Source: Ruditapes philippinarum
Lineage: Eukaryota
Length of the DNA stretch: 64,000 nucleotides
Assembly: GCF_026571515.1 (NCBI RefSeq)
Contig: NW_026853862.1
Coordinates: 1-64,000, forward strand
Reading direction: 5' to 3'
The position numbers were made by a program, and so were the translations under genes. Position 1 is the first letter of the stretch; each line of letters begins with the position of its first letter. This document shows positions 13,904 through 45,064 of the stretch, one piece after another. Below the pieces are notes generated by a model, which searched no databases, had not been told where the DNA came from, and was given only the letters and a program-made list of their open reading frames with translations.

Positions 13904-14729
13904 TTCTTTCTCTTTTTTTTAGGAAGTTTAGAAAATTCCTGATTTTCTGAATTTCTTTTAATGTATCCTTTCCCTTGAAGTAAAGTACAATGTATTCGAG
14001 TTTGAAAGGTTTTCTTTAAGAGATTTTTTCGATTGTTTTGAAAGTTATAACATAGGCCATATAATTATATACATGTAATGATATGTGATCATATGAGGGA
14101 CCAAAGGTTTTGTTTAATTTTATGATATGGTAGTTTGATAAGCCTGTATCAGTTTTATAATGTTTAAAGTTAAAATCTGTGTTCTTGTTATCAAAATAAT
14201 ATCAGTTCACTCTTGTTGTAAAATCGTTCTACCTTTGACTTTTCTTGATAATACATGTATCTAAGGCAGTTATAATGTAAAGGTATGATACTGGATCAAG
14301 CAGTGCATGTCTAGATAAAAGAATAAAATGAGATCTTTTAAAAGAGTTGAAATTAAAGACATTCTGCATTTCTGCATGCCTGTACTTTTGATATCTGGAA
14401 AATATATGTGAACAATGTGGTTTTGTTTGGACTACAAAAGTTATATAAACCATAGCCTTAGGATAAACATTGGCTATGCCCTGAATATCACTTAGTTTTT
14501 ATGCCCGTCATGATGATAAGAGGTTACATGCGTTTGAAAACCTTGTACTTCTCATAACTCTGTCATGCTTCAAGGGATTTTGAAATAATTTGGCACAAAT
14601 GTGTAGCATGATAGACGGTGTTTAATGGGCATGGCCTATATCCCTTTTCTTTAATACAATTATTCTTATTCAAAATTCAAACAGTGATTTTGTAAACTTT
14701 AGGATGTAGATATATAGCTTTATACATTC

Positions 14730-15090: not shown

Positions 15091-15996
15091 GAACATGTAA
15101 ATAGATATATTTTTTCAATTATTTTATAATATTATTAATAGGAGATGTGTATGTGCATATTGACCTTCATGGTGCTAGCAGTGTGATTATCAAGCATGAC
15201 ACTGGGGGAACCAATACCACCAAAGACTCTGAATGAAGTTGGAACCATGGCTATATTTAACAGTGCAGCCTGGGATGCTGAAGTGGTAACCAGTGCCTGG
15301 TGGGTGTATCCTAGTCAGGTATCAAAGACTGCGTCCTCTGGGGAGTATCTCGCCACTGGTAGTTTCATGATCAGAGGTTGGTAAATGAAAAATATGACAT
15401 TCTTTCACTTGAATATTTTAGATTTTTTCCATAGAAATAGTCTTTAAATTATAGCTTTTAATCCGAATTGCTGGAACATTTGCAAAATTGTTGCTTTATG
15501 ATTGGGAAGATTTTGAATAAATTGGCACAAATAATCACGAGACTATGTGCTTATGATATGCATGGTACAACATCAAGGTCGTGGTTGGTTAAAGGTAAAA
15601 AAATACACATTTATGTCCATGCGGAAGGGGATTTAGCTGTTCTTTAGACTGCCTTTTTCTGTGTTAATAGGCAAGAAATTCAAAATATTTGTTTTCTGCT
15701 TAAGAAAGGATAGGTATAGTTTTTGGAATCTGATTAAGTGGTATGCCAAAATATAAATTAGTCTTTAATACCATGCATATTGAAAGTAATTATAATTGTT
15801 AAAACCGCACACCTTTAGATTCATGCTAATTTTCATCCAACTTACAATCCATGTGAATTACCAAAAAGAATTCAAAATAATCATCTGATGATGAGCAAAC
15901 AAATAATGATAAAAGTGATGATACTGATAGAGAAAATGCCAAAAATGACTCAAAGAATGACGAAAAAGCAGATAATAGTGCAAGTACTAAAGTAAA

Positions 15997-16158
15997 AGTA
16001 ATATAGGTTATTACGCTTCTCCCCCACCCTAAAAAAAAAAAATATCATCCCGTTATACCCCCAAATTGAAAAGTACAGAAATGCTTAAATCATGATAATT
16101 ATAGTACCCGCCAAAAAAAAAAAAATTTTTATCCCCGGCGGGACTCGAACCCGCGACC
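15997..16158 (+). repeat. Polinton left terminal inverted repeat
   Basis: Reverse complement of 31733-31895; differences are mainly homopolymer lengths and a few small indels. Confidence 0.93.
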
Positions 16159-16199
16159 TCTAAACCCGAAAAAATTATATTAATAAAAAGTAAAAAAAA

Positions 16200-16846
16200 C
16201 TATATAATTTCCAAAACACAACTAATTGTTAATCCATTGTTGTTTATTTTCTGACCTTTCTCATCACAAACGCTTATACTTAATTCAGAAATATCACCAT
16301 GTGTCAATTGTTTGTATTGTGGATTACTAAAATTAATATGAACAATATCACCGAATGGTTTATTTTCAACGGGAACAACACAAAGAATATTACTAGGAGC
16401 ACCATCAAAGAAATTGTAAGAACTATTTATCTGCTCAAGATGAACATATAGTTGTTTATAAGGTGCAAAATCTATTGTTCTTTCACCGTAGTGCGTTTCA
16501 TTAGCAGTAAATCCTTTCTTATTTTTTAAACCCTAATATTTGTTTTTAAACCTTTACTTATATTCAAATTATCTGAAGTAATTAAAGAGGCAATACCATT
16601 TGTTTCATTTACAGTTAATGTAATATTATAATTGTCAAATATATCTACTATTTGTTGAAAACTGTAATAACCATTTGTAATCTTGTTAGGACTATCAAAA
16701 TACTTTGTATATATTCATCAATTAAATTATACCAACCTATAGTATAAGTAAAAACTCTTTAATCCGATTCTCTTATTTCCACATTTGTTATCTATATATT
16801 GTAGCAAATTTATAGTGTTTTCAATGTTTGAAATTGTTTGATACAT
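16200..16846 (-). pseudogene. Minor capsid (penton-like) protein, frameshifted as assembled
   Basis: Pieced translation MYQTISNIENTINL...GWYN...ITNGYYSFQQIVDIF...VNETNGIASL...PYKQLYVHLEQINSSYNFFDGAPSNILCVVPVENKPFGDIVHINFSNPQYKQLTHGDISELSISVCDEKGQKINNNGLTISCVLEII* fits the single jelly-roll minor capsid pattern of Polintons. Confidence 0.7.
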
Positions 16847-16862
16847 TTTTTAATGAATAAAA

Positions 16863-18220
16863 ATGACAGTACATAATTTCAAATACAACAAAGAAGTAGT
16901 TTATAATACAGGAGGAATATACCTTTAAAAACCTATAAATATAATAAAACAATCCGTTATTATTTCATCAGATAAATAAAAGTTTTAATGCGGATTTCCC
17001 AAATATATTTGAAAATTACCTATTACCAAAAATATCATCAAATGAAATAGTTAATAGATGGAATGCAGACTGGTTATCGTTTTTGGCAAAATCAATTAAA
17101 CTTTGCTATATGGGTGTGCTACTATACAGGTTGTGGTATAGATGTTAACAACCATTTAAAAGCAGGAGGGTTGACCGGTTCACTATTCTTATTTCACGTT
17201 TACTACCAAACAAGAAGAATATTATTTGAATTATCTATTGCCCTACCACAAGATAAAAGTTGGAATGCATTTAACAACAGTTATGACCGTGGTGCTTACG
17301 AAAGAATATGTAAAGAGTTTAATGTAGACCCTCATTCAGATTGGAGACAAAAAATGTATCCGAGTGGTGATGGTTTAGGATTAGTTCACACAACTAGTCA
17401 CTCTGCATGGAAACGAACTGATTTTAGACATGATTATTCTTCAAAACATATTTCTAGCAGCACATCATCTGATTTAGATTTAACAAAAATGACATTCGGA
17501 CCAGAAGTTCCAGGTGGAAGAAAATGTGGTATTTCATCATGCGAATATCTTCCACCAAAGAAAATTCATATTGATTATATTCAACAAGAAGATGATGTTA
17601 AGCGATGTTTGGATCTAATCTTATTCTCGATACTGCAGAAGGTTCTCGCGAGAGCAGGCGGCGTTCACGGATTGAACGAACAATATAGAACTATGCTGGC
17701 TATTCTTGTTCCACCAAATCTCAAACAAGAACTGATTAACCGGAAACAGGAACAGCTTTTGATGCGCGCAAAAGAAAAGTTTCTTGCAATGTTGAACGAT
17801 GCTATCAATACCCTTAGATTTACAGTATCCTAAATAACCGATGATCAAAACCACATTCAAAATTGCAGAAGTAAAGTGACTATTTTACGGAATTGGCTTT
17901 GTACATGTTCCTCCTCAATCCTGGAATAAAATTGGAGAAATACAAACTCTAATAATAAAATTAAACAAAATGATATCAAAAAGCTCGGATTGAATAATGA
18001 TGTTAATATTCAACCAATTCCAACAATTATACATACAGAAATTAAAGGAACGCCAACAAAGAAATCTTTACCAGAACCTAAAGAAATAGCTAAATCTTTA
18101 GTTAAAGTGTCAGATGTAATAGAAAAAAATATATCAATAGAACACGAAGATAAAAGAGCAGCATTAATCGTTGGTAGTATAGTAATAGGTATTATTACAT
18201 TTTACTTTTTACGAATATAA
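16863..18220 (+). pseudogene. Polinton hypothetical protein with C-terminal transmembrane segment, frameshifted as assembled
   Basis: ATG at 16863, core ORF 17063-17833 (FWQNQLNFAIW...FHVYYQTRRILFEL...AYERICKEFNV...DWRQK) and tail ORF 17990-18220 (HEDKRAALIVGSIVIGIITFYFLRI). Confidence 0.6.
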
Positions 18221-19513
18221 TTATTAGCAGTTGCATACAACATTCCGACAACAAGAACAACTACAGCCCATAAATGTTCACCAAACCAGGATACAACTTT
18301 ACCCGCGGAAGAAAGCAACCAAGAAACAATAGCACCGATAATACCGGGCAATGCTTCTGCAGCTTTACCAGCTAGAGTAGCTAACAGTTTACCAAGATTT
18401 GATAATTGTTTTTTTATCCAGTCTTTTACACCACTTCCATCTTTTGGAGGAGGCTTAGGTGTTGTAGTTCCACCACCGGTAGTAGGAATTAAAGTCTCAA
18501 CAATAACACCAATAATCATTCCAAAAGCAGTTAAAACACTAACAATTGTAATTCCTTGTTCTCTAAATAATGTTTTTATTCTCTGAGCTAATGTAGTGTC
18601 TTCTTTTAATACTTTATTTATTGTTTCCTTTATCCTATTTACCTGACTACGTAATTTATCTCTATAACATTAATTACTTCCAGTCTTGCACTTTTTTTTC
18701 AAACTCCAAATCTCTTATTCGACTACTTATCCTTTCTCTATTTGGAATTCATCATTATCTGATTTGGCTTGTTCTAATTTATGTTTTTCTTTTTTCTATG
18801 TCTTTATTTGTTTCATTCAATTTAGTCAATTCATTTGCAATCTCTTCTTTTACAGTAGTCATTGCTTTGAGGACACCATCCATTTCTCTCTTTGTCATAT
18901 CTGTTTGTGTTTCTTGTTCGTCAGTAAATGATGTTTCTATTACTTTCACTGCAGTTTCAGCTGCATTAGGTAAATCAGTCATTTCTATATTATCAACATT
19001 AGGTAGATCATCTTTCACCTTTTGCAAGCTTTTAGCCGCTTGTGCTGATAATCGTTTTAGTTGTAGATCTATAATCAGGTAAGCTTAATAAGTCTCTAAT
19101 TTTATTTTGCTCCACCACTACCAATTCTACTCGACAAAGAACCCAAGTTTATAAAACTACCACCTTTTTTGGTAGTAATTTGAATATCTATATCACCTAA
19201 CTTTAAAAATAGTGTTTTATTATCAGGACCAAGTTCAAAGTTTGAATAATCAATAAATACTGGGTCTAACCCATACTTTTTCTTTTATCAACTTGTAATA
19301 TTCTTTAACTACATATTGTTTCTGTTTTTACTATTAATTGTGTTCTTGTATCAACATCATCACCGATATCCTAACGCAATATGAGCACTTTGGTTTTGTA
19401 TAGTTCTATTAAATTCATAATCATCATCTACAATTAATTATTATCCTCATCATAGTCATCTTTATTATCAAACGCAGAATTATCAAATTTCAAATTCGCC
19501 TTGTCAAGCCCAT
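18202..19513 (-). pseudogene. Coiled-coil protein with hydrophobic/amphipathic C-terminal helices (putative membrane-active virion protein), frameshifted as assembled
   Basis: ATG at 19513, acidic N-terminus, coiled-coil ORF 18779-19027 and C-terminal ORF 18202-18519 (KDWIKKQLSNLGKLLATLAGKAAEALPGIIGAIVSWLLSSAGKVVSWFGEHLWAVVVLVVGMLY). Confidence 0.6.
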
Positions 19514-19560
19514 TTTAATGTCACTTAAAAAATATCCTTCAAAAATTGTCCCTTCTAAAA

Positions 19561-20873
19561 ATGTCGGCTTTTGGAGAAGAAAATTACTAACCCCGTACAC
19601 TGAAAATTCAATAAGAGAACCACGTGGTTATATCCCCACAGAGGAATTCGTCAGCAGTGTTGTTATAACCAATAATCATTTCAACTATTGACCAAAAATC
19701 AAGAACGACATCCACAGGTCGAGATTTCCTAATCTAAGTAGCAATCGCATTTATTGTTCCCGGATCAGTCAGATTAAGCATTTGAAATTTGAACGAAACT
19801 CTAACAAGATGTAAATGCAACAGTATATCATGAACATAGGGACCAGAGGCAGATAATTAAGAAAACAACAATTAGAATAAGTGGAGCAAAGTTATGTCTA
19901 TTGATGATAGCGATATTTACCATTGTTATATCGATTTATGGAAGTCTCCCCCTGAACGTTTAAATATGGCCTATCAAGGTATCGGTAAAAATAATATGTT
20001 AAAACATAGGATTGGTGCTGCAGATGCTTCATCAGACAAAGAAGACGAGGCTGTAGCAAAAGCATACAAGAACAGATTTTGCATCCCACTTGATTTTGAA
20101 CTATTAGAAACTCATATGCCATTTTATCAAGCTGGTCTTGGTGACAGACTCGAATATGAACTTACTTTCAATGATTATGAAAAAGTAATTAAATCAACAG
20201 ATGCTACTTCAAGTTATACAATCAAAAACATATGTTTGGAATTCGATATGGTGTCTGACCCAGAACTTGCAAGACAAATAAGACAACAGGTAGATGGTAA
20301 AATGGTTATTTTATATGACAGAATACTAAGACACAGAAAAATAACTAAAAATAAATCTGATACGCTTTGGAATATTAATCTAAATGTTCCTGCTAGAAAA
20401 GTATGAAAGGTATTCTAATGTTAATCGAAGACCCGGAAAGAACATCAACTGAAACTTATTACAATCCGAATATAACAAAGCTAGAAATGACAATAGAAGG
20501 CAGTCCCGAATCAACTCATACAGTCAAGGAATGAAATCTTATCAACAGTGGGATGAGATAAATAAATCCCTTGCTTTTAAATTCAAAACGAAATAAAGAA
20601 ACAAGTATGATTGTAAAAGATTTATGTTTCACTAGTACAAACATTAAGAAAATATCTAACAAACAATTATGCATTATGGTTAGATTTACGTTCAACGGAT
20701 GAGAAACACCATGGTCTTCCGGAGAAGAATGAAAAGTGCAATCAGAAGGGTATAACAAACAAATCGAGAAAGAAGCAGGAGCATGAACTACTAAATTTTA
20801 CTTTATATATTATACAAGATGCACAATTAGATTTTGAAGAGGGTAGATCTTAAAAAAGAAATTAGTGTATTGA
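19561..20873 (+). pseudogene. Major capsid protein (double jelly-roll, hexon-like), frameshifted as assembled
   Basis: Core ORF 19894-20406 (NRFCIPLDFELLETHMPFYQAGLGDRLEYELTFNDY...YTIKNICLEFDMV...WNINLNVPAR) continues out of frame with MKGILMLIEDP...YYNPNITKLEMTIEG and ends YIIQDAQLDFEEGR. Size (~430 codons) and position next to the ATPase are typical. Confidence 0.8.
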
Positions 20874-20916
20874 AGTCGATAAGTAGAATTATCTTTTTTT
20901 TTGCGAGTTATTAAAA

Positions 20917-21536
20917 ATGACTACGCAAAATACATCCCCACTGCTGAATTATTTGCGGTCAAAACGGTTGCGGAAAGACTGAATTCGTTTAGACTTACTG
21001 TGAAAATCGAATATGCGGGTGTATTAAATAATTGTTATACTTTGTCCAACATTCACTGGAGCAACAGCATCAGCAAAAATCGTGAGTGGTATTGGTGACG
21101 TCGGAAACCGCAAAATCAAAAAATTCTATAATCGTGCAAATCCGTATCCCTCAATGGTGAAGAGAAATTAACAAGAACTATTAAAATGATTCTTCAAAAA
21201 AGACGCTGGTTCTCCTACTTTAATACACTCATGTGATCGATGCAGTCGCTGACAAAAAGATAACGAGAAAAAAGATATGCTTTGGAAATGCTTTTAAAGA
21301 ACAATAGTAATCGCGAGTTAATACAAAGAACAATTCATCTCTTAACACCCAGATGTCCAGAACGAACCAAACAACCGTACCTGTTTTACACAAACCGCAC
21401 CAGAGATAGCTTTGAAAATGTCTACAAATGATGTCATTCCACATCGAAGAAAGGCAAAGAATAAAAAAAGGAGACAGCATCGTAAATTATTCTTGAAAAC
21501 TGACCACCATACTAAAATTTATGGGTAGTTGATTAA
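20917..21536 (+). pseudogene. A32/FtsK-like genome packaging ATPase, heavily frameshifted as assembled
   Basis: Walker A ICGQNGCGKT at 20951-20980 directly downstream of the MCP gene, with a degenerate Walker B-like region near 21225-21250. Confidence 0.75.
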
Positions 21537-21552
21537 GTTATTTTTTATTAAT

Positions 21553-21860
21553 CTAATGCTATTAGTAATGCTTTAGAAATGTTTTAGTAATGCTTTAGGG
21601 CAATGCTTTAGTAATGCTAAAATCATATAAAATAAAAATAAAATTTTTACTTAAGTATGCTTAAGTAATGGCTTTAGTAATGCTATAGTAATGCTTAAGT
21701 AATGCTGAAAGTAATGCTACTAGTAATCGCTATAGGTTTTTACATAATGTTTTTTAAGTAATCGCTTTAGTAAATGCTATAGTAATGCTATAGTAATGGC
21801 TTTAGTAATGCTTAAGTAATGCTTTTAGTAATGCTTTAGTATGCTTTAGCCAATGGCTTA
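21553..21860. repeat. Internal 11-bp tandem repeat array (AGTAATGCTWW) in two blocks
   Basis: About 20 degenerate copies of AGTAATGCTTT/AGTAATGCTAT/AGTAATGCTTA, separated by an AT-rich spacer at ~21621-21650. Confidence 0.88.
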
Positions 21861-21896
21861 GATTTTTAATATTACTTAAAATAGAATAAAAATAAA

Positions 21897-22950
21897 ATGA
21901 TACCCTGAAATACTTCAAATACTAACAATTATAAACAACACCTGCAGCTTATTCGAGTAGTTCGCAAACTATTCGCGTATTTAATTATTATAAAATAAAA
22001 AAAATCTTAAAAATATACCTAATTGAAAATGATGCTCGAAAAAATACTCAAGAAAACCATACATGTTGATGAAGAATAATGAATTAGTATGAAATGAAAC
22101 TTGATAGATAGTGCATCAAATGTTATTGCTGGTGGAGGAAGTAAGACAACTATCTTGAAAAGAATACCAAATGTCAGGACATTGATACAATTGACAACCA
22201 GAACAAATAAATAAACCTATACTCGCAGATATGAAGGCTAGATTAGGTAGGAAGTAGTGACTAGACATTGGGAAAACTCTTTTATTATTTATATGTTATG
22301 GGTGTATCAAAATATGGTTAATGTTGTGGATCCCCCAAAATTAATACAAGATTTTAGAAGAAGATCCATTTGTAAATAATGCTCTGAATAGTTCATGTTG
22401 TAAACTTTATTATAATACGGAATGTATCTTGCTCCTTTTACTGGCTATGTTAACAACAGCAAAACATATTGATTTTAATAAACCTCCTGATGAAATTACT
22501 ACAGATAATGAATTAGAAAATATTACTATAAAAAAATGACGAGTGAAAAAGTTGAAATTATTATGACCGGATGAAAAAGAAAAAACTAAAGAAAAAACGA
22601 AAAACCAAAAAGAGTATCTGCAGGTAAAAGAATTGCAGAAGCTAAAAAATAAAAGCAGAATTAAAAAGAAAAGAAATAGGAAAATATTGATAAAGAAAAT
22701 AAACAATCTAAATCCACAGGAATAACAAAGATGATGATGATGATGAAGTTAAAAAAGTTAAAGAAGTTTAAATACATACAAAAATTATATACCTTTATGT
22801 CTAATTGGAGTTGGATTGGGAATATATATTTATAAGTCTTAACCTATTATAAAACATCAACATGTGATACAAAAGCAACCTGTTCTACAAAAAAAAGAAA
22901 TTGAGTCAAAAGAAAATAGTATAGGAAGTTGGTAAAAAAAAATTGTTTAA
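21897..22950 (+). pseudogene. Cluster of small Polinton hypothetical genes, heavily frameshifted as assembled
   Basis: TAAAATG-type starts at 21897 and 22536. Fragments include VVDPPKLIQD/EEDPFVNNALNSSCCKLYY and a Lys-rich KTKNQKRVSAGKRIAEAKK followed by hydrophobic YIPLCLIGVGLGIYIYK. Confidence 0.45.
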
Positions 22951-22965
22951 ATTTAATATATAAAA

Positions 22966-23211
22966 ATGGCGACACAAATTGATGGGAAAACAAATAGCGA
23001 ACATGTTATATCATGCTGGAGTGGAAACTGTATTAACAATTGGGTATTCAGAACTAGGAAGAAAACTATTGAAAAAACGCAGCACCAAAAGTAGATTTTA
23101 ATATGGGTGATATTGGAATGTTATCTATTGATATATTACTCGCAATGGCAAAACAAAAGGATATGTTGGTTAAGCCAGGGTATTATACCTAGCAGATATT
23201 AGATGAAGTAA
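22966..23211 (+). pseudogene. Small Polinton hypothetical protein (~80 aa), frameshifted as assembled
   Basis: MATQIDGKT/IANMLYHAGVETVLTIGYSELGRKLLK...PKVDFNMGDIGMLSIDILLAMA/KDMLVK... Confidence 0.55.
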
Positions 23212-23236
23212 TTATTTTATTTTATTTATTTCAAAA

Positions 23237-23670
23237 ATGGCTAAGTGCAGTAATATGATGATTTGGGTGCAGCGGGTTAATGCTTTACGCCTTTTCGGGG
23301 TAGTAATTATTTGTTTTCGCATATGGTAAAAATATGATATAGAGAGAAAAAGACAATGATAAACGCGATGGAAAAATTATCCAAGAAGAACAACTGCATG
23401 GAAATGAAAAGAGAACAGAACAGATTAGATTTTTATTAATGAAACAAATGAAAAAGGAACGTCATGCTACGGAAGAATTTGATAATGCTGATACAGCATG
23501 AAAGAATATTATTATATTACTGGTAAAACAATTACCGGCTTTACCTCCTAAAACCCGTATTAAGTGATTTCTACACTCCGTCAGAAGACGCAGAAAAAAT
23601 AGAGAGATTGCATTTATTATTGGTGGTATGGCATTAACATAACTGGTTTCTTGTATATAAAATTAAGTAA
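23237..23670 (+). pseudogene. Small Polinton protein with hydrophobic N- and C-termini, frameshifted as assembled
   Basis: Fragments GSNYLFSHM, MKKERHATEEFDNADTA, MKEYYYITGKTIT/LPALPP, VLSDFYTPSED and REIAFIIGGMALT. Confidence 0.55.
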
Positions 23671-26600
23671 AATAACCATAAGGTAAAGTATCTATTATCC
23701 ATTATCACATATATATCTTTTATCATCAAAAGTAGATAAACCTATTTTAAATCGATTCATTTAAATATATATTTATGTTTTTTATGTACTAAATTATTCA
23801 TTTTTTTATGAATTACTTTTTTCTTTAATAAACAATCTTCATATGATTCAGTATTAAATTCTTTTTTAGTTGTTTTATTAACACCTTTTGCAGTACATTT
23901 TGAATATAACATTAGAATCTTCTAAATATTCAAAACTATACATTTTACTTCTTATTCCAATGAAATTTGTCATTACATTCCTCTCCTAATTCATCTTTAA
24001 ATTTTCCAAAATTCAACTTTTTTATTTTTATTTGAAAACAATGGATGCTCCTTAGGATAATTAGACAAGTATCTAAATTTTCATTTATTTTTCTAAATCA
24101 GAATATAAATCTTCTGTATACTATATATTTAATACCATGCTGTCAGTATTCTTGATATAAAAGTTCATTATTTGGAAAATACTTTTCAATTGTGTCATAA
24201 TAAAACTTGTACATTACTAATTTAGAATAATCTAAAAACACACATTCCTAAATAAATAGGTTTTAGTAAAGTACATTGATTTATAATTTAATAACACTGC
24301 TTTAAAATTATTATTAAAATCTATAATTATCTTTGAAAATTATCGTTTAGAAGCTAATCGTTTTAAGTCTTCGGGTTTATTTATTAATTCAACTATACAT
24401 CTATTAGAAATATTTTCCAAAGTTTTTCCATAGAAAGAATTATTAATTAATTTCCAGAAATCTTTTTCAAAATCATTTGTTGCTTTTGCTTCTCAATCAA
24501 TATATGGTTTAACCAAGCTTTATGATTAAAGGATATTATACTATGAATCTTTGATACTTTTATTCCAAGATATATGTAATATTTTAGAATATCATAATGT
24601 ACAATATACTCTTTTTTATCATGAAGATCTAATATTAATTTTTCAACTTTTCCTAATTTATTATTATTTTGTTTTAAAGAAATCTCTTTGAATAATCTGA
24701 TATTCATTTTCATTAATTTTTCTTGATAAAGGCATAGTAGGAAACTTTCTTAATTTAATTTTTGTTATTTTATCATATTCTAAATCTACTTTAAAAATCA
24801 TTCCAACATCTTCATTACATTTATCTAAATAATATTTATTTCCTGATTTTCTACTTCTTCCCATTTAAAATTTTTATAAGGTAATTTTGCTGATAATCAC
24901 ACACCCATATAAATTATTTGCATCGGTATACCATAAATAATTAGGTTTATCTATTTTCTCATTTTTATTTGTATATTTATTAAAAGCTTTAACATATCTT
25001 GAACCTAATACTCCTGAAAATCCTCCTCTTGTTCCTCTTCAATCATAATCTTTCATATCTTTGTCTGTTAACAAATCTAATTCAATACCAGTATACTTTA
25101 ATCCTGCATTCCATGATAAACCAGGAGCAGAATAACAATAAGCTGGATCTATTTCATAATGTTTTAAACATATATCTCTAAAATTTTCAAATACATCTGC
25201 TAATATTAAAACATCAAGTTTCTGATATATCATTAAGTAATCTTCAAATGTTTTACAATATTTATTAAATATCTTTTTACCATGATTATATTCTTTTTCA
25301 GAAATATCTTTTTGATATAATATAGAATAAAATTCTTTTTTATCAGGAAAATTTTCTAGTTTTAATTTATCAAAAGAATCAAAATAATCATAAGGAAATA
25401 TTCCTTTAAAACTTCTTTCATTATTTTCAATATATTTTAAATCTTCAAATAAAGTATCATCCGATAATTCCCTTTTAAGTATTTTATATTTATCATCTTC
25501 TAATGTTTTTGATAAATTATCTATACTACTTAGTAAAAATCTCATACTATCTTTAAAAAACTAACTTAAAATATTTATCTCCGAATGTTATTGATATATA
25601 ATTTTCACTATCCTTTGGTAAAACTTTTACTTTATTATATTCAGTTTCATGTTTTAATAGTTCTTCTGTTAGGAAATGGAAATCATACCCACTTCCATTA
25701 TGAAAAAAGATTGGAAATTGTTTCCCATCTCTAGATTCTTTACTATTACAACTGGAACATGAAATTCCTCTAAATTCACCTGATAAATGATCATGTTCTA
25801 TTATCTTTTCCTTTCTTTCTAATTTCTTTTTACACATATAACAACAATCAGAAGTATTATATAGTTCTTCTTTTTCCTTTTTAAAATTTTTTCTGCATGA
25901 TAATAAGCCCACTTGATTTATCATTATACTTTAAACATGTTTTTATAAAATCTTCTTCGGCATTTTCACTAGGTGCATAGTTAATATTTTTATTCGGTAT
26001 GATATCCGGATAATCAGAAACTAATTGTAAATTATATGAAACTACTTTCTGTTGTTGTAAATTTATTGTATTATCTTTAAATGATAGTTTGATATTTTCT
26101 CTTTTTATTTTATTTCGTAGATTATCACTAATTTCGCTAATATCTTTTTTAATTTTTACTTTATTATTTTCACAATATTTTTCTTTTTCATATTCTGATA
26201 TTTCTATATGTCTACCGTCCTTCAATCCATTTATCAAAAATGTTGTCTATTAATTTGTTCAAAATATTTTTTTAATACAATTTTCTTTAATTTTATCCAA
26301 ATATATTTTAGTTCTTTCATCAGATATTTTATTATTAACATAATTATGATAAATTCTTTTAGCTTCTTTTTTAGATATTTTCTTCTTCTTTCATTATTTT
26401 ACCGATAATAATATTCTTTACTTTAGAATTAACATTATGAGATTTACTTTTTATTTTTAATTTATTTATTTGTTTTCGTAGGTCTACGTCAATATAACTT
26501 AATTTTATATTAATCGCTTCAAAGTCTGCATATCCGACAAATGGTAGTTTTAATTTAAAATGATGATTTTCAAATTTACATTTACTTCCTTCTGGTGGCA

Positions 26601-27589
26601 TTATAAATTTAAACGGTTCATTTTTTTGCAATCTTTCATATGTTTTTCTAAAGCTTTTTCAGTAGTATATGAAGCAGTAATACAATTTCTACAATGATAT
26701 CTTTTATTATGATTATGATAAGATAAGCATTAAAATCTTTAATTAAGCAATAATGTTTTTTGTCATTTAGAGTGACATGTAATAAATCTATAACATATTT
26801 TCTATCTTTAAATTTACTTATGTACATTGGATAAATATCACGTAAATTTTTTTCTTGTTGTGGTTTTTTAAAATCTTTATTTTCAGGATCTAAAAGTTCC
26901 TTTTCAATTCCGAATACATTAATAGCTACATTTTCATTTTGTTTTTCAAATGTTCCAATTGAATCTATACTTACTGGGAATTTAATATTTTCCATATTAA
27001 TATGATCTAGAAAAGGTTTATAAATTGATACTCTTGCTGGGTTTTTATTCATTTTTTTAAATATATCTGAATATTTTTTTTATCTTCAGGTTTCTCTTTT
27101 AATTTATATAGCATTCCAGCAATTACACTATAAGCAAAACAGTGATTATCATTGTTTTGAATATTTAATAAACTATTGAATTTTATTCCTAGATCAAAAT
27201 AAGAAGATCCATTTAGACTTCTTACTCTTACAACTTTAACTTCCGTATTTTCTATTTCATTAAATATTAATCCAGATTCTTTTCCCTGATGTTCTTCTTC
27301 CCATACTTTATACTTTTCAATAATAGAATTATATACTTCATTAAATTCATTTTGAGCATATGAAGTTTTATAAATCCGCTATTATAATGTCTCTCTATTT
27401 TTTCATCCATTGCTATAGGCTTTGAATAAATAGTTTTATTATTAGATTAAATTTAACATTAGGAAATGATGAAACTAATCTTTTAATATCTGGTTTAATA
27501 TTTCTAAAATAATTATTTATATTAATACCACTTTTATTAATAACTTCCTTAACATAGTTTTTATTGCTACCGGATTTTTTGAATCCCAT
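23663..27589 (-). pseudogene. Protein-primed family B DNA polymerase (pPolB), frameshifted as assembled
   Basis: Motifs in order: ExoI GYADFEA; EndoVII-like Zn motif CYMC...EHDHLSGEFRGISCSSCN; ExoII FHNGSGYDFHFL; KGIFPYDYFDS; ExoIII YQKLDVLILADVFENFR; GTRGG; YTDANNLYG; KLINNSFYGKTLEN; disrupted YxDTDS near 24140-24160; C-terminal LSTFDDKRY...TLPYGY. Confidence 0.93.
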
Positions 27590-27614
27590 TTTATTAGAAA
27601 ACAATTTGAATAAG

Positions 27615-27833
27615 CTATAATTTTTTATCGTGATAATAATTAGGATTTCTTGTCATAAATTCTTGAAAAGCCTGTTTATATTTTTCTTTGTTTTTTTGAT
27701 AATGTTTTTGTTTCATAGGTTTATTACATTGTATACATGCAGATTTAACTCCCATCGCAAAACCTTTTGCTTTATGATATTCGCTTAGTAATTTGTATTC
27801 ATTACATTTTGTACAGATTTTTCCTTCTGTCAT
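27615..27833 (-). CDS. Small Zn-binding protein (CxxC...CxxC, basic tail), 72 aa
   Basis: MTEGKICTKCNEYKLLSEYHK...SACIQCNK...; intact ORF with TAAAAAATG start, divergent from the integrase. Confidence 0.7.
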   Translation of the reverse strand: MTEGKICTKCNEYKLLSEYHKAKGFAMGVKSACIQCNKPMKQKHYQKNKEKYKQAFQEFMTRNPNYYHDKKL

Positions 27834-27849
27834 TTTTTATGTTTTAAAA

Positions 27850-28801
27850 ATGGAGCATCCGAAAATATATTGTTTACGTTGTAAAAAACATACCGATAAT
27901 GATTCAGTAGAGCAAGTAACAACAACTAATAATAGACAAATGCTAAAAGCTAAATGTTCTGAATGCGGATCTAAAAAAAGTAGATTTATAGCTGGTTTAA
28001 CAAATAAATTAGCAGATGAATTACATCATAGAGTTATAAAAAAAATTCCTAAAAGACGCATTTATGTTCATTCAGTAGATCAGACATGGGCAGTTGATTT
28101 GGCAGATGTGCAACAATATTCGAAACAAAATAAACACTATAAATATTTATTAGCAGTTATAGATGTTTTTAGTAAATACGGTTGGCTAATTCCCTTAAAA
28201 AATAAAACAGGAGTAACGGTAAGTGAAGCATTTAAAACATTATTTGAAGAAAGAAAACCAATGTATATTTGGTCAGATAAAGGTTCTGAATTTTATAACC
28301 GGCAAGTAAAAGAATTGTTAAAAGAGAATAACATAAAGTTATATTCAACTGAGAATGAAGAAAAATCTAGTGTAGTAGAACGCTGGATAGGAACAATGAA
28401 ACAACGTATGTTTAAATATTTTACTGCTCACGAAACTAATAAATATTATGATGTATTAGATGATTTAGTTAAAGATTATAACAATACAGTTCATTCTTCT
28501 ATTAAAATGACACCTGTTGAAGCAATTAAAAAAGAGAATGAATCAACAGTGTATGAACATTTATATCCGGAAAAAGAAGAAGTAATTAAAAAACCTAAAT
28601 TCAAAGTTGGAGATAGAGTAAGAATTGCAAAAATGAAAGGTAAATTTGAAAAAGGTTATACAAACCCGTTGGAGAAGAGAAATATTTGTAATTGATGAAG
28701 TTTTAAATACAGATCCTGTTACTTATAAAATAAAAGATTTAAAAGATGAAGAAATTAAAGGAAGTTTTTATGAACAAGAATTACAGAATACTGATTTTTA
28801 G
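27850..28801 (+). CDS. Retroviral-type (rve) DDE integrase with N-terminal Zn ribbon; one frameshift near 28665
   Basis: MEHPKIYCLRCKK...AKCSECG Zn ribbon; catalytic WAVDLAD, WSDKGSEF and ENEEKSSVVER; YNNTVHSSIKMTP; PKFKVGDRVRI. The C-terminus continues in another frame as EIFVIDEVLNTDPVTYKIKDLKDEEIKGSFYEQELQNTDF* (TAG 28799-28801). Confidence 0.92.
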
Positions 28802-28810
28802 AATATAAAA

Positions 28811-30201
28811 ATGAGTATCTTTGGAATCAAAAAACATAAAAGAAACAACTCTGAACTTGGTAATAAAATGAATATACCATTAGATATGAGCGGTAACTCT
28901 ATAATTAATTTAGGAAATCCAGAAAAACCAAGTGATGCTGTTAGCAAAAGATTTGTTTTTAGGAAAATTAAAAGTGTAATAGACGACTATGAATTGGAAG
29001 ATATAAAAAACATTAAAGACTTACTTCAAACAGAAAAGTCAGACATTGATCAACTTTCTGAAAGTATTAAAAATAATGAAGAAGCAATAATCACACTGCA
29101 CGGTCAACTCCAGAAAGAAATGGCAATCTTATCAGAATCACTTAGTAAAACAGATGATGAAATAAAAGTTGCATTAAGGCAAAACATTCTTTTAATCGCA
29201 AACCGAATTGATAACATAAAGAATAGCATGATTAAACACAACGAACTTAAGAACAAATTTGCTGAAGCTGAGAAAAAGCTACAAAATATGTATAAGTTAG
29301 AAATAAAAGAAGAAATAAAAACGTTAAAAGATGACTCAACGGAATTGTTTAATACATTTTCTGAAAAGTTTGATGAATTCAAAGCACAACTAGAACAATC
29401 TGCTTCACAAAGAAACGATGCTCAAGATGGAGAAATTAATAATTTAAAAGTTAAATTAAATCAAATGAAAGATTTGCTTACTAATAATCTGCAGAAAGAA
29501 ATTACCAGACTTGATGTGGATGTTAAGAAAAATGCAGATGATACTAGAGATGCAGTTAACAAAATAGATACAAAAATAGAAAGTCTCGAAGAGGTTCAAA
29601 CAAAACGTGTTAATGATTTAGGTAAAACAATACTTGATACAGTCTCAGACCTTTCAGAGGCGAAAAGGGCGATTTCTGATATTATTAACAACAAAATATA
29701 TCATGTTCCTTTATTACATATGCGGAATGATTCTACTCTAGAAGTTAAAGTTTTACCTACTACTTACGAAATCGGTAAAAATAATCGTTATATTAAAACT
29801 CATAATCTATTTAAGTTTTTTAATTATCATTATTCACCTGTTGTAAATTATAATGATTATATAGAAGAGGAACTTGATATGAATATAGGTGACTTTAGAA
29901 ACGTGAGTGGTTTTACAACTAAAAAAGATGGAACATACTACATTAATATAAAACTTATAATAAAGGGTAAAAGCGACTTTTTATTGATATGGCAGGAAAA
30001 TTACAGATCTGAAAACGAAGACAGGACTCATGAAGTACTTTTAAAAAGATCAACAGTACTGATGAAAAATTTTTTGAAGACGTTATAAAGCAACAGTTTT
30101 TAAAGAATACATCAATTGCAATTATTCCAGTCTCGGTTACTGACCAATTATTTACTATTGAAAAAGGCAGCTACATTAGATTTACATATTCTTGGGAATA
30201 A
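28811..30201 (+). CDS. Putative fibre/receptor-binding protein (neck motif, long coiled coil, beta-rich head); ORF 28811-30088 plus frameshifted tail to 30201
   Basis: N-terminal LDMSGNSIINLGNPEKPSDAVSKRFV fibre-neck-like motif, ~240 aa of heptad coiled coil and a C-terminal GFTTKKDGTYYINIKL. The alternative frame continues KINSTDEKFFEDVIKQ...GSYIRFTYSWE*. Confidence 0.7.
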
Positions 30202-30228
30202 ATTATATTCAAAAAATTACCTTTAAAA

Positions 30229-30872
30229 ATGAAGACACCAACAGCTCCGGATCCTTTATATCCAGAATTACCAGTAGAAGATGGACAAAATTATAGATTA
30301 CAGAAGATATCAGAAATAGAAAAAAAATTAATTAATGAGAGGGATACTCGTAAATCATTATACAAGAAATATAAACGCGGAATTAATATAACTGACGGTG
30401 TTGATACTGGTTTAATATCAACATCCGTTATTTTAGCCGGTACTAGCTTAGCTATTCCTTTTATGTTACCTTTAGGAATTGCAGCCGCTGTATGCGGAAG
30501 TTTAGGAGTATGTGTTAAATTTATTAGACGTAAATTACAATCAAAAACAAAAAAAAACATTATGAGATTAAAACTATTGCTGATAGTAAATTAAATAGTA
30601 TAAAAGATTTGACTTCAAAAGCTTTAACAGACGGACAAATATCTGAAAATGAATTTAAATTGATTTTAGATGAATTAGATAAATATAATAAATTGAAAGA
30701 TAGCATACATTCAAAACAAACAGGATTGAGTGAGACAGAAAGAAAAAAGTTAATAGAAAAGGGAAAAGCACAGGCTTTAAACGAGTTAAAAAAAAAAGGT
30801 AAATGTATAATTTTATTCACTAAAGTTACAATAGTAAATGATCCTCCACCTATTTATTCAAGCATAAACTAA
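30229..30872 (+). CDS. Polinton membrane protein with central hydrophobic hairpin and ESCRT late-domain-like motifs; one frameshift in the A-run near 30550
   Basis: ORFs 30229-30594 and 30609-30872 join across an A10 run: MKTPTAPDPLYPELP...YRLQKISE...LYKKYKR...(hydrophobic)...KHYEIKTIADSKLNSIKDLTSKALTDGQISENEFKLILDE...NDPPPIYSSIN*. Confidence 0.75.
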
Positions 30873-30893
30873 TATTTTAATTCCTTGTACAAT

Positions 30894-30907
30894 AAAAAAC
30901 TGCAAAA
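30894..30907 (-). terminator. Putative Pol III oligo-T terminator of the structured RNA
   Basis: Minus strand TTTTGCAGTTTTTT (T4 at 30907-30904, T6 at 30899-30894) immediately after the terminal stem. It overlaps a plus-strand AATAAA (30891-30896) of the convergent gene. Confidence 0.6.
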
Positions 30908-31276
30908 TCCTTCAACCGCCTAATCCTTTAGCCTTAGGACTGAGTTATTCTTTATTTGTGTGCACCCTAGCCCTAAGACTTGTTGGTTTCGGCACTTTTC
31001 TTAAGCTATTCACCTGGAAGCTATCCTGCTCGGGTTATTACTTCGCTTGTTAGGTCACCTTTAACCCCGTTTGATAACCTCTCGAAACCTAAACCAGAGA
31101 TCATCAGAGGTAAGGCAACCATTCTGTAAATCCATACTTGGTAAAGAATTCTTTTCAGTGCACACAAACCCAAGTATGAATATACAGGTAGCGAACTTTT
31201 CCGAACACTATCTTCCCTAGCAGCGAATAGAGTCATACACAGTGCCTACACCCAGACTAGAACGGCATTCAGACAT
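30900..31276 (-). ncRNA. Candidate ~375-nt highly structured Polinton-encoded ncRNA (probable Pol III transcript)
   Basis: Nested helices found by eye: 31266-31254/30926-30915, 31246-31241/30996-30991, 31230-31222/31014-31006, 31216-31209/31023-31016, 31207-31201/31033-31027, 31195-31190/31047-31042. Hairpins: 31187-31170/31141-31124, 31120-31113/31060-31053 with 31106-31096/31082-31072, and 30980-30969/30941-30930. About 15 G.U pairs, valid only on the minus strand; GC content is above the flanks. Confidence 0.75.
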
Positions 31277-31294
31277 TAATGTAATATGAAATCT

Positions 31295-31310
31295 ACCTAT
31301 ATATATAGGT
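31295..31310 (-). promoter_or_regulatory. Palindromic TATA element (ACCTATATATATAGGT) about 25-30 nt upstream of the structured RNA
   Basis: Perfect 16-bp palindrome containing TATATATATA (31298-31307), at U6-like spacing from the first paired nucleotides. Confidence 0.55.
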
Positions 31311-31732
31311 GTATTTTTCTTCCGACAAATTGACTGGTTTTAAAATTGCATAATTTACAATATATTTCTCGTTCATACCAAGATGTTATTTAGACATGAT
31401 AATAAAACATAAAATTTAAATATATATTTATATGTATATGTGTATATGTGAATTTTACATTGTTTTAATTTGTTAAAGGGAGGTAATGTTATCGGAAAAC
31501 AGTATTAAAAATAGATATTATGTTTAAGTTATCAGACCATAAAGTTAACCACAAAGAGCAGTCAGTCGTTTCAATGTGTTTACATAAAGTACATTAATAA
31601 ACCACAGGCATTTATAAATTTAAATGTAGTATTTTAAGTGCATAGATTTAAACGTTAGTGAATTTTCGTTTTATAAAATTTTAATGTTTTCAAGGGATCC
31701 CTCTAGAGGTTAATTTTTTTTTATTTTTTATG

Positions 31733-31895
31733 GGTCGATGGTTCGAGTCCCGCCGGGGATAAAATTTTTTTTTAGGGCGGGTACTATAATCATGATTTAA
31801 GCATTTCTGTACTTTTCAATTTGGGGGTATAACGGGATGATATTTTTTTTTTTTTTTTTTTAGGGTGGGGGAGAAGCGTAATAACCTATATTACT
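31733..31895 (-). repeat. Polinton right terminal inverted repeat
   Basis: Reverse complement of 15997-16158, ending ...CCTATATTACT and followed by the TSD AGTAAA. Confidence 0.93.
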
Positions 31896-32894
31896 AGTAA
31901 AGTCAAAAGATACAAATGAATCAGACAGTTGTGAAACAAGTGGTAAAACTGAAGATGATATGGATGACAAAGGCTGTGATAATACAAAAAGTGATATGAT
32001 TTGAGATGGTGTTGACACCAGTAAAGGAGAAGTTGATAATGATGGGAAAAATATATCAATGTGAAACCAAAAAAAAAAAAAAAACAACAGAAAATGTGGT
32101 AGAGTTCACAGATACGGAAATTAGTCTGCATCATGTGAAAGGAGATAAGTAAGTTTTATTTTCTGATCATTTTACCTCATATATATGCGATTCAACGCAT
32201 TTTTGACCCTCCCCCTTTGTTTAAAAAAGTGATCTTTTTTTTCCTTCATCGCCAAAGAAATTTTGGACTTGTTAGAGGCTAAAAATGGCCTTAGGTCAAT
32301 CGTAAGGTAACGAGCAACCAACACTGAAAAGCCTTTGACTTAATCTCAATCCATTGAAAAGTGGCAGCACTCTGAAATCAGTTTTGATGGGAAAGATAAG
32401 CGCAAAATAATGATTTTTGGCAATTTTGAGATGCCCCTTCATGGCAATGGTAACCCTTCGTTACCCTTACAAAGGCTATGGTCCAGTTAACATTTGTGCC
32501 ATGTTTGGTCAGCATTAAATCATTTTTCACAGTTTCATAGCAATTTGAACTTGTAACAGGAGGCTTTTCAATGAAAACAGCCATTTTTCACAAAATGATT
32601 ATGAAGTTATGGGTTTACGACATTTTGTTAACCTCTTTTGGATGTAGTTGATTATATTTTATCCAATTAAGATATGCACAGATCTGTTAAACGTTTCTGC
32701 TATTATGAGTTTGTTCAAAGACCACAAACCTTCAAGAAAATTTAAGAAGATTGGTACCAAGCTTGGTTTTGAGTTATCCTGATCCAGTTCAGCAGTGATA
32801 TTTTATTTAAGTTCTAACTTATTTCAACTAAGCTTTTTTATGAGGAAGATATATTAATTAAAAAAAATGCACTTAGAAGTAATAATGATTAAGA

Positions 32895-39712: not shown

Positions 39713-40270
39713 AAACCAGTCTTTAATCATATATTTGTGTTTATGCATTTTATAAGTATGAAACATTTACAGATATCAGATGTTTTATTGAAAGCAGACA
39801 CGCAAAATTACAAAGATAGAAATGTAAAAAAAATGAACTACTATCAATTGAAACTAGCAGGCAATTACACACATATGTTAACAATATTTTCATTTCTTGT
39901 TTTATCATGTACTAGCTGAATATTGCATTTCAAGATTTCATGTTGTATGGCTTTGTTATTATCAGGTTCAGCTAGTTATCTGATGATTGCTGGCCACATG
40001 AGGTCAAACTCCATGTGGGGCAAGTCGTTGAAACTTATTATTATATTTTGTGCTTATTAATGGTTTAGTTTAGGAGTGGATTAAGGAATACAGTGTGTCT
40101 TTAAGGTGATAGCTTCCTTCACAGTCAAAGTTAAATAAAATCTGTATAAATGAAGATTACATGTGTCATATTTCAGTTAAGTGTATTTAGGATTATGACC
40201 CTTATTCTACTGCAATAAAGCAGTAGGATAAATGCTTGTGATGAGTCTTTTTGTCAATGTCTGTTTTTGT

Positions 40271-42068
40271 TTATTCTTGTAACACTTTGAAAACTTTAAC
40301 TTTATTTGGCATCCCAACTAACAATCCCTTGGTATAAGCGCAATATGCAAGACTGCTTGGTTTATCTAATCCATCATTTTTATCTATTAAGATCTTCACT
40401 TTAGTGAGGTATCTCGATAATTGATGGATATTATCAGAAGCAGCTCCACACACATATACTGATCCATAATCATCAATAGCAAGTTGACGAGGCATTTTCA
40501 AATCATCATCCATGTAAATGGCCTTCTTCTTACCAGCAAATGTCAAACAGGTCACGGTGTGTTTGTTCGGATCAGAAACATATATCATAGTATTGTCAGG
40601 ACTGACAATCAAGCGCCAAGGAGTAATAAACAGTTCCTGACCATTATCATCTTGTTTAAATGTTTTCTGTATTGTTCCTGTCATACTTAGAATCATGACA
40701 CTACCTGGATACAAATATGAAACCACAAGACAGTGATTCCTGTAGGCAATACCAGTGCAAAGACCTTTTCCTGGCATCTCGGTGATACTTGAAACTTTCA
40801 TATCTCCTGAAAATGTTATCAGTCTGATTAATCTTTCATTTGGAAATGTTACGGCAACTTTAAAGTCTGAAACTTTTGTAATGTCCCACGGACTTGTATA
40901 AAATTCTATGTTATCCATACAATTTGCCTGTGACTTTTCTATTTTGTATATGACTAGTCTACACTTTTTCCAATCTGATATCAAAAGTGTATGTTCAGAT
41001 AAGACAAGTAAAGAGGATATGACGTCAATGTAACAGTTGATATCAAAATTGAAAGCAACTTTTGTTTCTATTTTTTCAAATGTGAAAAATCTTGTTTCAC
41101 TCTCTAGAGATTGTTCTGTTGGTTGAATGTTGGAGGTTGTGTGTTTGTAGCACTGAATGCAGACTTGTCGAATTTGTTCAGTATTTTGTTGTAAGGGTTT
41201 CACACATTTGTTTTGCTAACTGTAATTTGATAAAAAGTTCACAGTTTTGACCTAATTTTTTGGCTTGGTCTAGATCAGAAGTAAGAACCTTTAAATTCTT
41301 TACCAAATATAAATGTTCTGACCTTAGAACCTTAAAGTTTGTGTTTGTGCTAGCAACCTGTTCTTTCATATCTGTTTCAGCTTTTGTTATCTTGTTTTTA
41401 AATTTTCTATCCTTTTCGGATAACTCTTCAACTAGTTCCAACCTTTCTTTCTTCAACCTTTCAATGGTCTCTTTCATCTTCATATTAAAATCTTCAATGA
41501 GATCTTGATGCAGTTGTTTAAAGGCTTTAAATAGTTTATCTTTGTGCTCCTTGCATGTTTCAGTTGCCTTTTCTTCTTGTTTATCAACCACTTCACTTTT
41601 GACATTCAAAAGCTTTTCTGTGTCTTTTATATCAGCATACAATTTATCCAAGTTCTGTTGAAGGTCTTTAAAGTCTTTACTTTTTTGTATGCCCGAAGCA
41701 AGTGTTGATAAATGGTTCACGTCTCTACAGTTTACATGCTCATTATCCTTGCATATTTGGCAGGCTTCTTTGCTACACACAGAACAGTAAAACTTGATCA
41801 GCTGTTGAGGATGTGTGGAACACTTCTCAAAATAGAACGATTGTGGCATCTTTTTACGATCTTGAATTATGTGAGTTTGTGTTTCTCTCTTATGATATTT
41901 TAGGCAGGTCACACATTTATATTCTACACAATCCACACAGAAAGCTACAGCTGTTGAATAGCCATCACCATGGTTTGCACATTCTTCACAGTACATTTCC
42001 TTAACTCTGTCATCGTGTTGTGTTACTGAAGCACTGTCATTCGCAATCATTTTATTTTGTTCAGTCAT
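40271..42068 (-). pseudogene. RING-less TRIM-like gene, copy B, with a single +1 frameshift (possibly a sequencing error)
   Basis: ORFs 41178-42068 (B-boxes CEEC...FCVDCVEYKCVTC..YH, CSTH...YCSVC...C..C...H, coiled coil) and 40271-41203 (NHL-like blades) join if one G is removed at GGG 41195-41197. Confidence 0.85.
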
Positions 42069-42818
42069 TTTAGGAATATCTTCATTGTATCGACTTTTTT
42101 GTTATTATATCCTTTCCCTTGAAGTAAAGTAAATGTAATAGAGTTTGAATGTTTTTCTTTAAGACATTGTCATGATTATTTTAAGGTTACTTTATAGGCC
42201 ATATATATAATGATAAGTGATCATATGAGTGACCAAAGTTTTTGTTTAATTTTACCATACGACAGTTTGATAAGCCAGTATCAGTTTGATAGTGATTGTA
42301 AATTGTTATCAATGAAATGTCAGTTCATTCATGTCATAAAAACTTCTACCTTTGACTTTCTTAATTATACATACCTCTTAGGCGGTTATTATATAAATAA
42401 ATAATAATAGCTCTAATGTCCTGATAAAAGAAGTAAATCAGATATATTACTTTTTATTTAGTTTTTGATATATTTTCCCCATTATTCATATAGTTAATTG
42501 TATACATAGTAAATTTAATTTAGATTTACTGATATTTCAAGATTTCATGTTGCATGACTAAGTTGTTATCACATTGAACTAGTAATCCAACGACTGCTTG
42601 GTCGCATTGGTTCGACAAGCTGTTGCTTCCTTGATAAAAAAAATGAAATATTTACTGAATACGGGTTGTTTCCTAGAACGGATTCAAGAATACAGAGTTT
42701 GTATTAAAGTTGATAGCTTCCTGGGCAATCATACTTAATAAGGACACTCATTCCATCCTAATGAGAGGAGTATTTAAATTTAGTTGTTGATGATTCTTTG
42801 TGTAATAGTTGCTATTGT

Positions 42819-44612: not shown

Positions 44613-45064
44613 TTCTTACTTTATTTTCCAGGAATTGATTGTCTCAATTTTTTTTTATTATATCGTTCCTCATAAAAAATGCAGTTTAGAGTTTAAATGT
44701 TTTTCTTTAAGAGATTTTCATGTTTATCATGAAGGTTATTATATAGGCAATACATATCATCATAACTGAGGGACCAAAGATTTTGTTTAGCTTTACCATA
44801 CGATAGTTTGATAAGTCTGTATCAGTTTGATAGTGTTTAAAGTTAAAATCTGTGCTCTTGTTATCAGTAAAATGTCAGTTCATTCTTGTTGTAAAATCAT
44901 TTTACAGTTGACTTATCTAGTTAATGCATGCATCTAAGGCTATCATGTTGTAGAGGAATGATACTATTGAATTTAATGCCCAGATAAAAAAGTGAATGAG
45001 ATGTACTACATTTTAAAGAGTTTTTGGTAACAACATTAACGACAGCTGATGCATGTACATGTAC

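Follow-up and report, generated by a model that had tools for sequence, protein, structure and literature searches.

A structured RNA gene was identified in the cargo slot of a Polinton/Maverick element of Ruditapes philippinarum; it appears to be real and apparently has not been described before. The gene is located on the minus strand of a 64,000-nt stretch of DNA (contig NW_026853862.1, positions 1 to 64,000), which is referred to here as the window. Both the gene with its fold and a long-range pairing between two of its hairpin loops are quite probably genuine. The element and its genes comprise the following features, given in window coordinates.

15997..31895, no strand assigned: Polinton/Maverick element of 15.9 kb, flanked by the two copies (15991-15996 and 31896-31901) of a 6-bp target-site duplication
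left 15997-16164 and right 31727..31895, no strand assigned: terminal inverted repeats, 89% alike
19876..20406, plus strand: probable double jelly-roll capsid gene piece, a weak assignment (protein atlas look-alikes 0.98, recognition value below threshold)
24447..27052, minus strand: protein-primed B-family DNA polymerase, fragmented (matches to Pfam Endonuclease_7 and, below cut-off, to DNA_pol_B_2)
27850..28695, plus strand: retroviral-type integrase (Pfam rve, E 6.5e-12)
30229..30811, plus strand: last protein gene of the element, not assigned to a Pfam family and running convergently to the RNA gene; the assembled copy has a broken frame
30894..31274, minus strand: predicted noncoding RNA gene, based on the fold z score and on contigs from RNA runs, with predicted ends

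With its terminal inverted repeats, the 6-bp target-site duplication, an rve integrase and a protein-primed PolB, the carrier shows diagnostic features of a Polinton/Maverick. A packaging ATPase or a protease was not found in a non-exhaustive scan of 24 frames. Many frames of the element are fragmented and several other copies show homopolymer indels, so that assembly error may contribute to the broken frames. The RNA gene is located beside the right terminal repeat. Both terminal repeats (window 31727-31760 and 16115-16164) contain a hairpin with what we take to be a tRNA B-box-like motif, which is present in many copies. The Polinton also harbors an array of degenerate 11-12 nt repeats (window 21545-21847), and similar units occur in the end slots of two other copies (L029, L031). 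Four paralogous host genes of ~80% identity flank the element (window 11561-14340, 39915-45029 and 59584-62051), one of them with a match to a B-box zinc finger.

The fold of the region 31280-30890 has a z score of about -5.9 on the minus strand vs. -1.2 on the plus strand. Across the element, 3 of 107 scanning windows had z <= -3, and two of these three lie at the RNA gene. The RNA would be 368-381 nt long, depending on which of the predicted T runs terminates it. In the predicted fold, in which 19 of 117 pairs are G-U, a terminal stem joins the ends, one branch leads to hairpin B and a long interrupted arm leads to hairpins A and M. The elements of the gene are as follows.

31298..31309, minus strand: extended TATA motif, with a 23-nt gap to G31274, the predicted first G
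31254..31274, minus strand: terminal stem, 5′ strand, predicted partner 30926-30907
31241..31246, minus strand: scaffold helix P2b, 5′ strand, partner 30996-30991, with two-sided changes in a relic family
31222..31230, minus strand: scaffold helix P3, 5′ strand, partner 31014-31006, with two double-sided changes in relic copy L054
31124..31187, minus strand: hairpin A, stem 31187-31170 with 31141-31124, 28-nt loop
31158..31168, minus strand: loop A block 1, 11 nt, complement of 30965-30955, kept in relic copy L053 and with one change in L054
31150..31157, minus strand: loop A linker, 8 nt, different in the relic family
31142..31149, minus strand: loop A block 2, 8 nt, complement of 30954-30947
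31053..31120, minus strand: middle hairpin M, 68 nt, ~25 bp, bulged
30931..30979, minus strand: hairpin B, stem 30979-30966 with 30944-30931
30945..30965, minus strand: loop B, in which an unbroken stretch of 19 nt complements block 1 and then block 2, leaving 2 nt free
30894..30899, minus strand: predicted Pol III terminator T6, the first T4 being located at 30907-30904 with no earlier T run

The TATA motif with the same 23-nt gap (within 1 nt) was found upstream of three tandem host U6 genes, and a similar motif upstream of two host RNase P RNA genes; it is absent from the three host U2 genes shown. A TATA motif ~30 nt upstream of a purine start and an oligo-T terminator, as in Pol III type 3 genes, are both present. 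A proximal sequence element common to U6, U2, RNase P and the RNA gene was not found in a by-eye comparison, and the RNA gene contains no internal B box. At the 3′ end, the T6 run overlaps the AATAAA (30891-30896, plus strand) of the convergent protein gene. The absence of earlier T4 runs is not significant, as 23% of shuffled sequences likewise have none. Transcription by Pol III and the 5′ and 3′ ends of the RNA are predicted from these motifs.

The first-pass annotation had described two hairpin loops on the minus strand which share two complementary blocks and the palindrome GUGCAC. Both loops and both blocks were found again where it had placed them. Block 1 of loop A (31168-31158) is the exact reverse complement of 30965-30955 (11 bp), and block 2 (31149-31142) that of 30954-30947 (8 bp). 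While the location of loop B was correct, its size had been overestimated: the loop proper spans ~19-21 nt (30965-30945), since the outer three nucleotides on each side pair on top of stem B. The palindrome is indeed present in both loops, yet it adds little significance of its own, because the self-complementary hexamer sits inside block 1 and is thereby a by-product of the 11-bp match; some palindromic hexamer occurs in 2.7% of the shuffles of the block 1 11-mer.

The complementarity exceeds chance. In 200,000 shuffles of the bases of both loops, the two blocks were never reached jointly, and an 11-bp block alone was reached 29 times. When the whole RNA was shuffled with its dinucleotide composition preserved, the permuted 11+8 pattern appeared once in 5,000 shuffles and any 11-bp match in 73 of 5,000. 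The order of the blocks is permuted: loop A consists of block 1, the linker and block 2, and loop B of the complement of block 1 followed by the complement of block 2. A single inverted duplication would have placed the blocks in the opposite order and cannot account for this match. The arrangement seems to fit a single geometry, in which loop B spans the base of stem A and pairs with both arms of loop A. Within their hairpin loops, which are closed by long stems, the blocks stay 76-98% unpaired in the nested ensemble, and the best nested fold in which block 1 is paired is worse by 26 kcal/mol. This penalty, together with the mostly unpaired state of the blocks, favors a tertiary lock over the alternative fold (switch) that the first-pass annotation had also considered.

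Substitutions were counted in the most diverged Polinton copy (L005) against a reference copy (L002). Changes were found at 12 of 119 unpaired sites, at 9 of 224 stem sites and at none of the 38 loop-loop sites (p 0.014 for stem vs. unpaired sites, p about 0.03 for loop-loop vs. unpaired sites). Five of the nine stem changes preserve the pair and four break it, and part of stem B is missing from this copy. The RNA as a whole is no better conserved than the upstream spacer (24/381 vs. 24/361 mismatches), which indicates that a recent transfer of the cassette accounts for part of the similarity. Four copies (L007, L008, L109, L110) were omitted from these counts due to many homopolymer indels. 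In most copies the loop-loop pairs are invariant, one pair being broken in L003. Covariation between loops A and B across homologs, proposed in the first-pass annotation as a check, was not observed among the copies, none of which shows a compensatory change at a loop-loop pair. The long-range intramolecular pairing of the two loops is supported in that it melts no stem, exceeds chance and leaves its sites unchanged in the most diverged copy.

A relic family of two copies (L053:4874-5155 and L054; G000:C11028 and C4778), both located outside recognizable Polinton sequence, is ~77% alike over the TATA box and the 5′ part. It keeps the TATA box and its spacing, the start and block 1, and is colinear up to the start of loop B. 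At this point a 5′-truncated host LINE begins, which replaces the partner region of block 2; block 2 itself is different. The remainder of loop B in the relics matches block 1 no better than shuffled sequences do (1,767 and 2,995 of 5,000 as good). The scaffold helices show two-sided changes: in L054, P3 is paired at 12 of 12 positions via two double-sided changes, a result equalled by 13 of 5,000 shuffles, and double-sided changes likewise keep P2b paired at 7 of 7. L053 shows no significant P3 signal (2,273 of 5,000 shuffles). Stem A is kept in both relics through G-U pairs, at 10 of 12 positions in L053 and 9 of 12 in L054. The predicted RNA scaffold has some comparative support, and the proposed loop-loop pairing has statistical support but no support from covariation.

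Two further ideas about the relics were pursued and dropped. An alternative pairing, between block 2 of the relics and the beginning of stem B, was not decisive (330 and 132 of 5,000 shuffles as good). A retron-like unit of reverse transcriptase and RNA was rejected: the reverse transcriptase belongs to a 5′-truncated copy of an abundant host LINE, and other copies of this LINE lack the RNA.

A DNA search of the 1.4-Gb genome gave 12 matches to the RNA on 11 contigs, with the current family on nine contigs, in each case within Polinton sequence, and the relic on two. The last protein gene gave 51 matches, of which 30 were retrieved and 29 had a readable slot. Five of these 29 Polinton copies carry the RNA. 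It is therefore regarded as an optional cargo in a variable slot, because the remaining 24 carry something else there; four copies without the RNA are 98.5% identical in the neighboring last gene. The cassette moves en bloc between Polinton subfamilies.

In one copy (L004, G000:C14920) a 1.06-kb repeat element is inserted in loop B, and the same repeat family occurs at window 1-937. Another Polinton copy with a 96% identical last gene (L019/L107, G000:C1974:25228-25608) contains a different GC-rich structured cassette of ~330 nt in its slot, with four genome matches, z scores down to -6.7 and no match in Rfam. The loop of its last hairpin matches an upstream segment over a perfect 10 bp, and this cassette is a candidate for a second RNA cargo. 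A third type of cassette, present in L014, L015 and five loci related to them, shows a strand-specific fold (z -5.6 and -7.2), yet has T runs, and is a candidate for either an RNA or a promoter. Other slots (L017, L018, L020, L032, L036, L037, L088) contain repeated palindromes, sites which are presumably E2F-like, or an extra open frame.

Three of four RNA runs have contigs located within the predicted gene, at 30959-31257 (X17), 30995-31250 (X19) and 30975-31181 (X20). These contigs are unstranded and have no defined ends, X19 is a single adapter-flanked fragment, and the runs had been picked by means of this very query. In the fourth run (X15) the pieces run across the TATA box and the sequence upstream of it. 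The neighboring protein gene had no cover in any of the four RNA runs despite its larger number of copies, although missing cover outside the RNA gene does not prove silence. The contigs are a weak hint of expression of the RNA. Four further runs, three presumed to be DNA and one of unspecified kind, share one common allele; four sites of the RNA distinguish it from the window. The RNA runs containing the stretch are labelled as mollusc metagenome, sediment or the same organism.

No relative of the RNA was found outside this family. At gathering score, Rfam gave no match in the whole window. Between 30800 and 31900, with E up to 10, there were 12 matches, none of them close to cut-off; 7SK, RNase P/MRP, SRP and telomerase RNA are absent among these 12, a result that very divergent forms could escape, and the host genome holds its own RNase P RNA genes. 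Eight other Polinton loci gave one trivial Rfam match only. A search with the exact pattern found nothing in viral contigs, metagenome contigs and prokaryote genomes, and a 22-nt chance match only in phage records. The route over the neighboring protein yielded 428 homologs without DNA context and no locus in the viral and prokaryote collections; among 11 metagenome loci, the RNA was absent from the nine that were compared, and all 11 were negative with a covariance model. This model, built on hairpins A and M and run against 40 sources, detected only the window copy and, weakly, relic L053; very divergent copies elsewhere in the host genome may have escaped it. When 75 Polinton-end loci were scanned for a pair of hairpin loops sharing a 10-bp match, as well as for the promoter motif, no family other than this RNA was detected. 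The collections searched contain few animal genomes. Four 18/19 genome matches to loop B are AT-rich chance sites, and the 9 nt shared with host U6 are no more than expected by chance.

In the open-access literature we found no report of this RNA or of a structured Pol III RNA native to Polintons, while supplements or repeat databases may annotate it. In the available text of the adintovirus paper the word RNA occurs once and no such gene is described (PMC8502044). Terminal-repeat ncRNAs of unknown function are noted for a transpoviron (PMC11464507). The excerpts of a survey of polinton-like viruses list only RNAs of Rfam and tRNA type (PMC12220804). Such RNAs are likewise noncoding cargo of elements from the same broad group, but whereas they were recognized by Rfam and tRNA scans as tRNAs, group I introns, snRNAs, snoRNAs or miRNAs, the Polinton RNA matches none of these classes.

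The geometry of the loops resembles the omega junction between an H/ACA guide and its substrate, in which one contiguous strand pairs with two arms flanking a stem and forms a three-way junction (PMC6800473). In this work the substrate is described as bound on one face, with no threading, and additional pairs are considered to raise the strain (PMC6800473). By analogy, loop B would reach over the base of hairpin A, pair with the two arms of loop A, form a three-way junction on stem A and thereby clamp the RNA intramolecularly. Unlike in H/ACA RNAs, the pairing in the Polinton RNA would be intramolecular, the pocket is a terminal loop, the arms comprise 11 and 8 bp, and there is neither an unpaired target U at the junction nor a 3′ ACA. 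The terminal loops, the missing 3′ ACA and the lack of an Rfam match speak against membership in the H/ACA snoRNAs. Only the pairs nearest to the stem A junction probably form, because the 19 bp correspond to about 1.7 helical turns between two closed loops. Full pairing would link the two closed loops, with both helices winding the same way, and would require the 3′ end to be threaded or a nick to be made.

Adenovirus VA RNA I, which is ~160 nt long, is exceeded in length by the Polinton RNA with its ~380 nt. VA RNA and the EBERs are described as structured viral Pol III RNAs in the text available to us (PMC4378190), and the pseudoknot of VA-I prevents activation of PKR (PMC6599070). As far as these descriptions go, the Polinton RNA is like VA RNA I a structured noncoding RNA of Pol III type (predicted here) from a linear DNA virus of the same broad lineage, with a predicted terminal stem joining the ends, long imperfect helices rich in G-U pairs and a loop-loop pseudoknot. 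It differs in the upstream TATA and the lack of an internal B box, in being optional cargo, and in up to 19 loop-loop pairs in two helices instead of 3 bp. The absence of a B box and of a match to an Rfam model argues against its being a member of the VA RNA family.

From this comparison, we tentatively propose, at somewhat less than an even chance, that the Polinton-borne Pol III RNA is locked by its loops and acts as a decoy for host sensors of double-stranded RNA. Host RNA polymerase III would make the ~380-nt RNA from the U6-like upstream TATA promoter, and the loop lock would play the part of the central pseudoknot of VA-I. The compact, bent RNA might then bind PKR-, OAS-, RIG-I- or Dicer-like sensors without activating them, which is the least certain step. 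A counter-defense decoy fits best because the RNA is optional, rich in helices, of predicted Pol III type and located in a relative of the adenoviruses.

Several other explanations were weighed against the decoy. With its 68 nt and ~25 bp, hairpin M could yield small RNAs, which would make the transcript a precursor; alternatively, the RNA could process itself, as loop B exactly complements the sequence obtained by placing the 5′ end of loop A after its 3′ end and may serve as a splint for cutting or joining, and a nick in loop A would relieve topological strain. Against such self-processing, however, no ribozyme family was found in Rfam at a useful score, and a hammerhead or twister core with the right stems was not detected by Rfam or, for permuted forms, by eye only. 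The lone CUGAUGA (31107) lacks a partner stem with GAAA and is changed in two copies, the linker of loop A is not conserved, and the contigs from the RNA runs traverse loop A without joints. A precursor or self-processing RNA is therefore considered unlikely. The RNA gene could also have been captured from the host or be a non-autonomous cassette that hitch-hikes, with no job for the Polinton and a fold that aids its own stability or spread; this is given the same low probability. The host-type promoter, the two relics outside recognizable Polinton sequence and the movement of the cassette en bloc would agree with this origin, but the current family lies within Polintons on all nine contigs, and neither an intact stand-alone host copy (by DNA or pattern search) nor an Rfam match was found. 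A role in replication or integration at the adjoining terminal repeat, like that of bocavirus BocaSR at the viral origin or of EBER2 at the terminal repeats of EBV, appears distinctly unlikely. The RNA gene does adjoin the repeat, and precedents are given in the available text of two studies (PMC11194592, PMC4378190), in the first of which BocaSR is placed in a noncoding region beside the genome end. EBER1/2 of EBV and BocaSR are, as described there, likewise virus-encoded Pol III RNAs (Pol III being predicted here); the Polinton RNA, in contrast, is more than twice as long, lacks an internal B box, does not match the terminal repeat and shows no similarity to them in sequence or Rfam. Its complementarity to either repeat or to the rest of the element is within chance, and most copies lack the RNA.

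The first-pass annotation had named intermolecular loop pairing as one outcome, with rings or dimers possibly serving the packaging ATPase or the capsid. Its models were phi29 pRNA, which is essential and uses few intermolecular pairs, and the HIV-1 dimerization loop. Loop-loop pairing would be equally possible in trans, both loops contain the palindromic hexamer, and phi29 has in common with the element a protein-primed polymerase and two distant complementary loops in its RNA. Nevertheless, the Polinton RNA has two long blocks in permuted order, and a phi29-type RNA would be expected in every packaging-competent genome, whereas this one is found in 5 of 29 copies, which may not all be competent. 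A packaging ATPase was missing from the frames scanned, and we know of no packaging RNA in this virus lineage. A role in packaging or for the capsid is unlikely, since the RNA is absent from 24 of 29 copies, including the four with a nearly identical neighboring gene. In the HIV-1 DIS, according to the available text, six self-complementary bases kiss between two genomes (PMC10730233). Although the Polinton RNA also has such a hexamer in a hairpin loop, it is part of an 11-bp match between two different and much larger loops of 28 and 21 nt instead of dominating a small one. The resemblance is superficial: self-pairing of the loops (-12.4 and -11.3 kcal/mol) is weaker than the A-B pairing of block 1 (-18.9 kcal/mol). 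Rings or dimers are accordingly rated as very unlikely. It is extremely unlikely that the region encodes a 71-residue protein (31236-31021, minus strand) or that the match between the loops is an accident of DNA duplication. The 71-codon frame is open in five of the six current-family copies read, but it shows nine amino acid vs. two silent changes and is reduced to 26 and 32 codons in the relics, a pattern that suggests no coding constraint; the permuted order excludes one inverted duplication.

Beyond the loop-locked decoy, a bolder combination of ideas is distinctly improbable as a whole. All 19 loop pairs might form and wind the two stem-closed loops about twice around each other, giving a threaded, catenane-like RNA that is mechanically locked and nuclease-resistant, or the strain might be relieved by cutting and rejoining loop A on the splint of loop B. 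Such an RNA would represent a new class of viral noncoding RNA and belong to a set of swappable RNA cargoes carried at the ends of Polintons.

Polintons, which are relatives of the adenoviruses, occur widely among animals. If confirmed, the RNA gene would represent a VA-RNA-like strategy in an integrated animal DNA virus, with a U6-type promoter and a swappable cargo slot. An intramolecular omega junction of up to 19 pairs would in addition test how far two closed RNA loops can pair.
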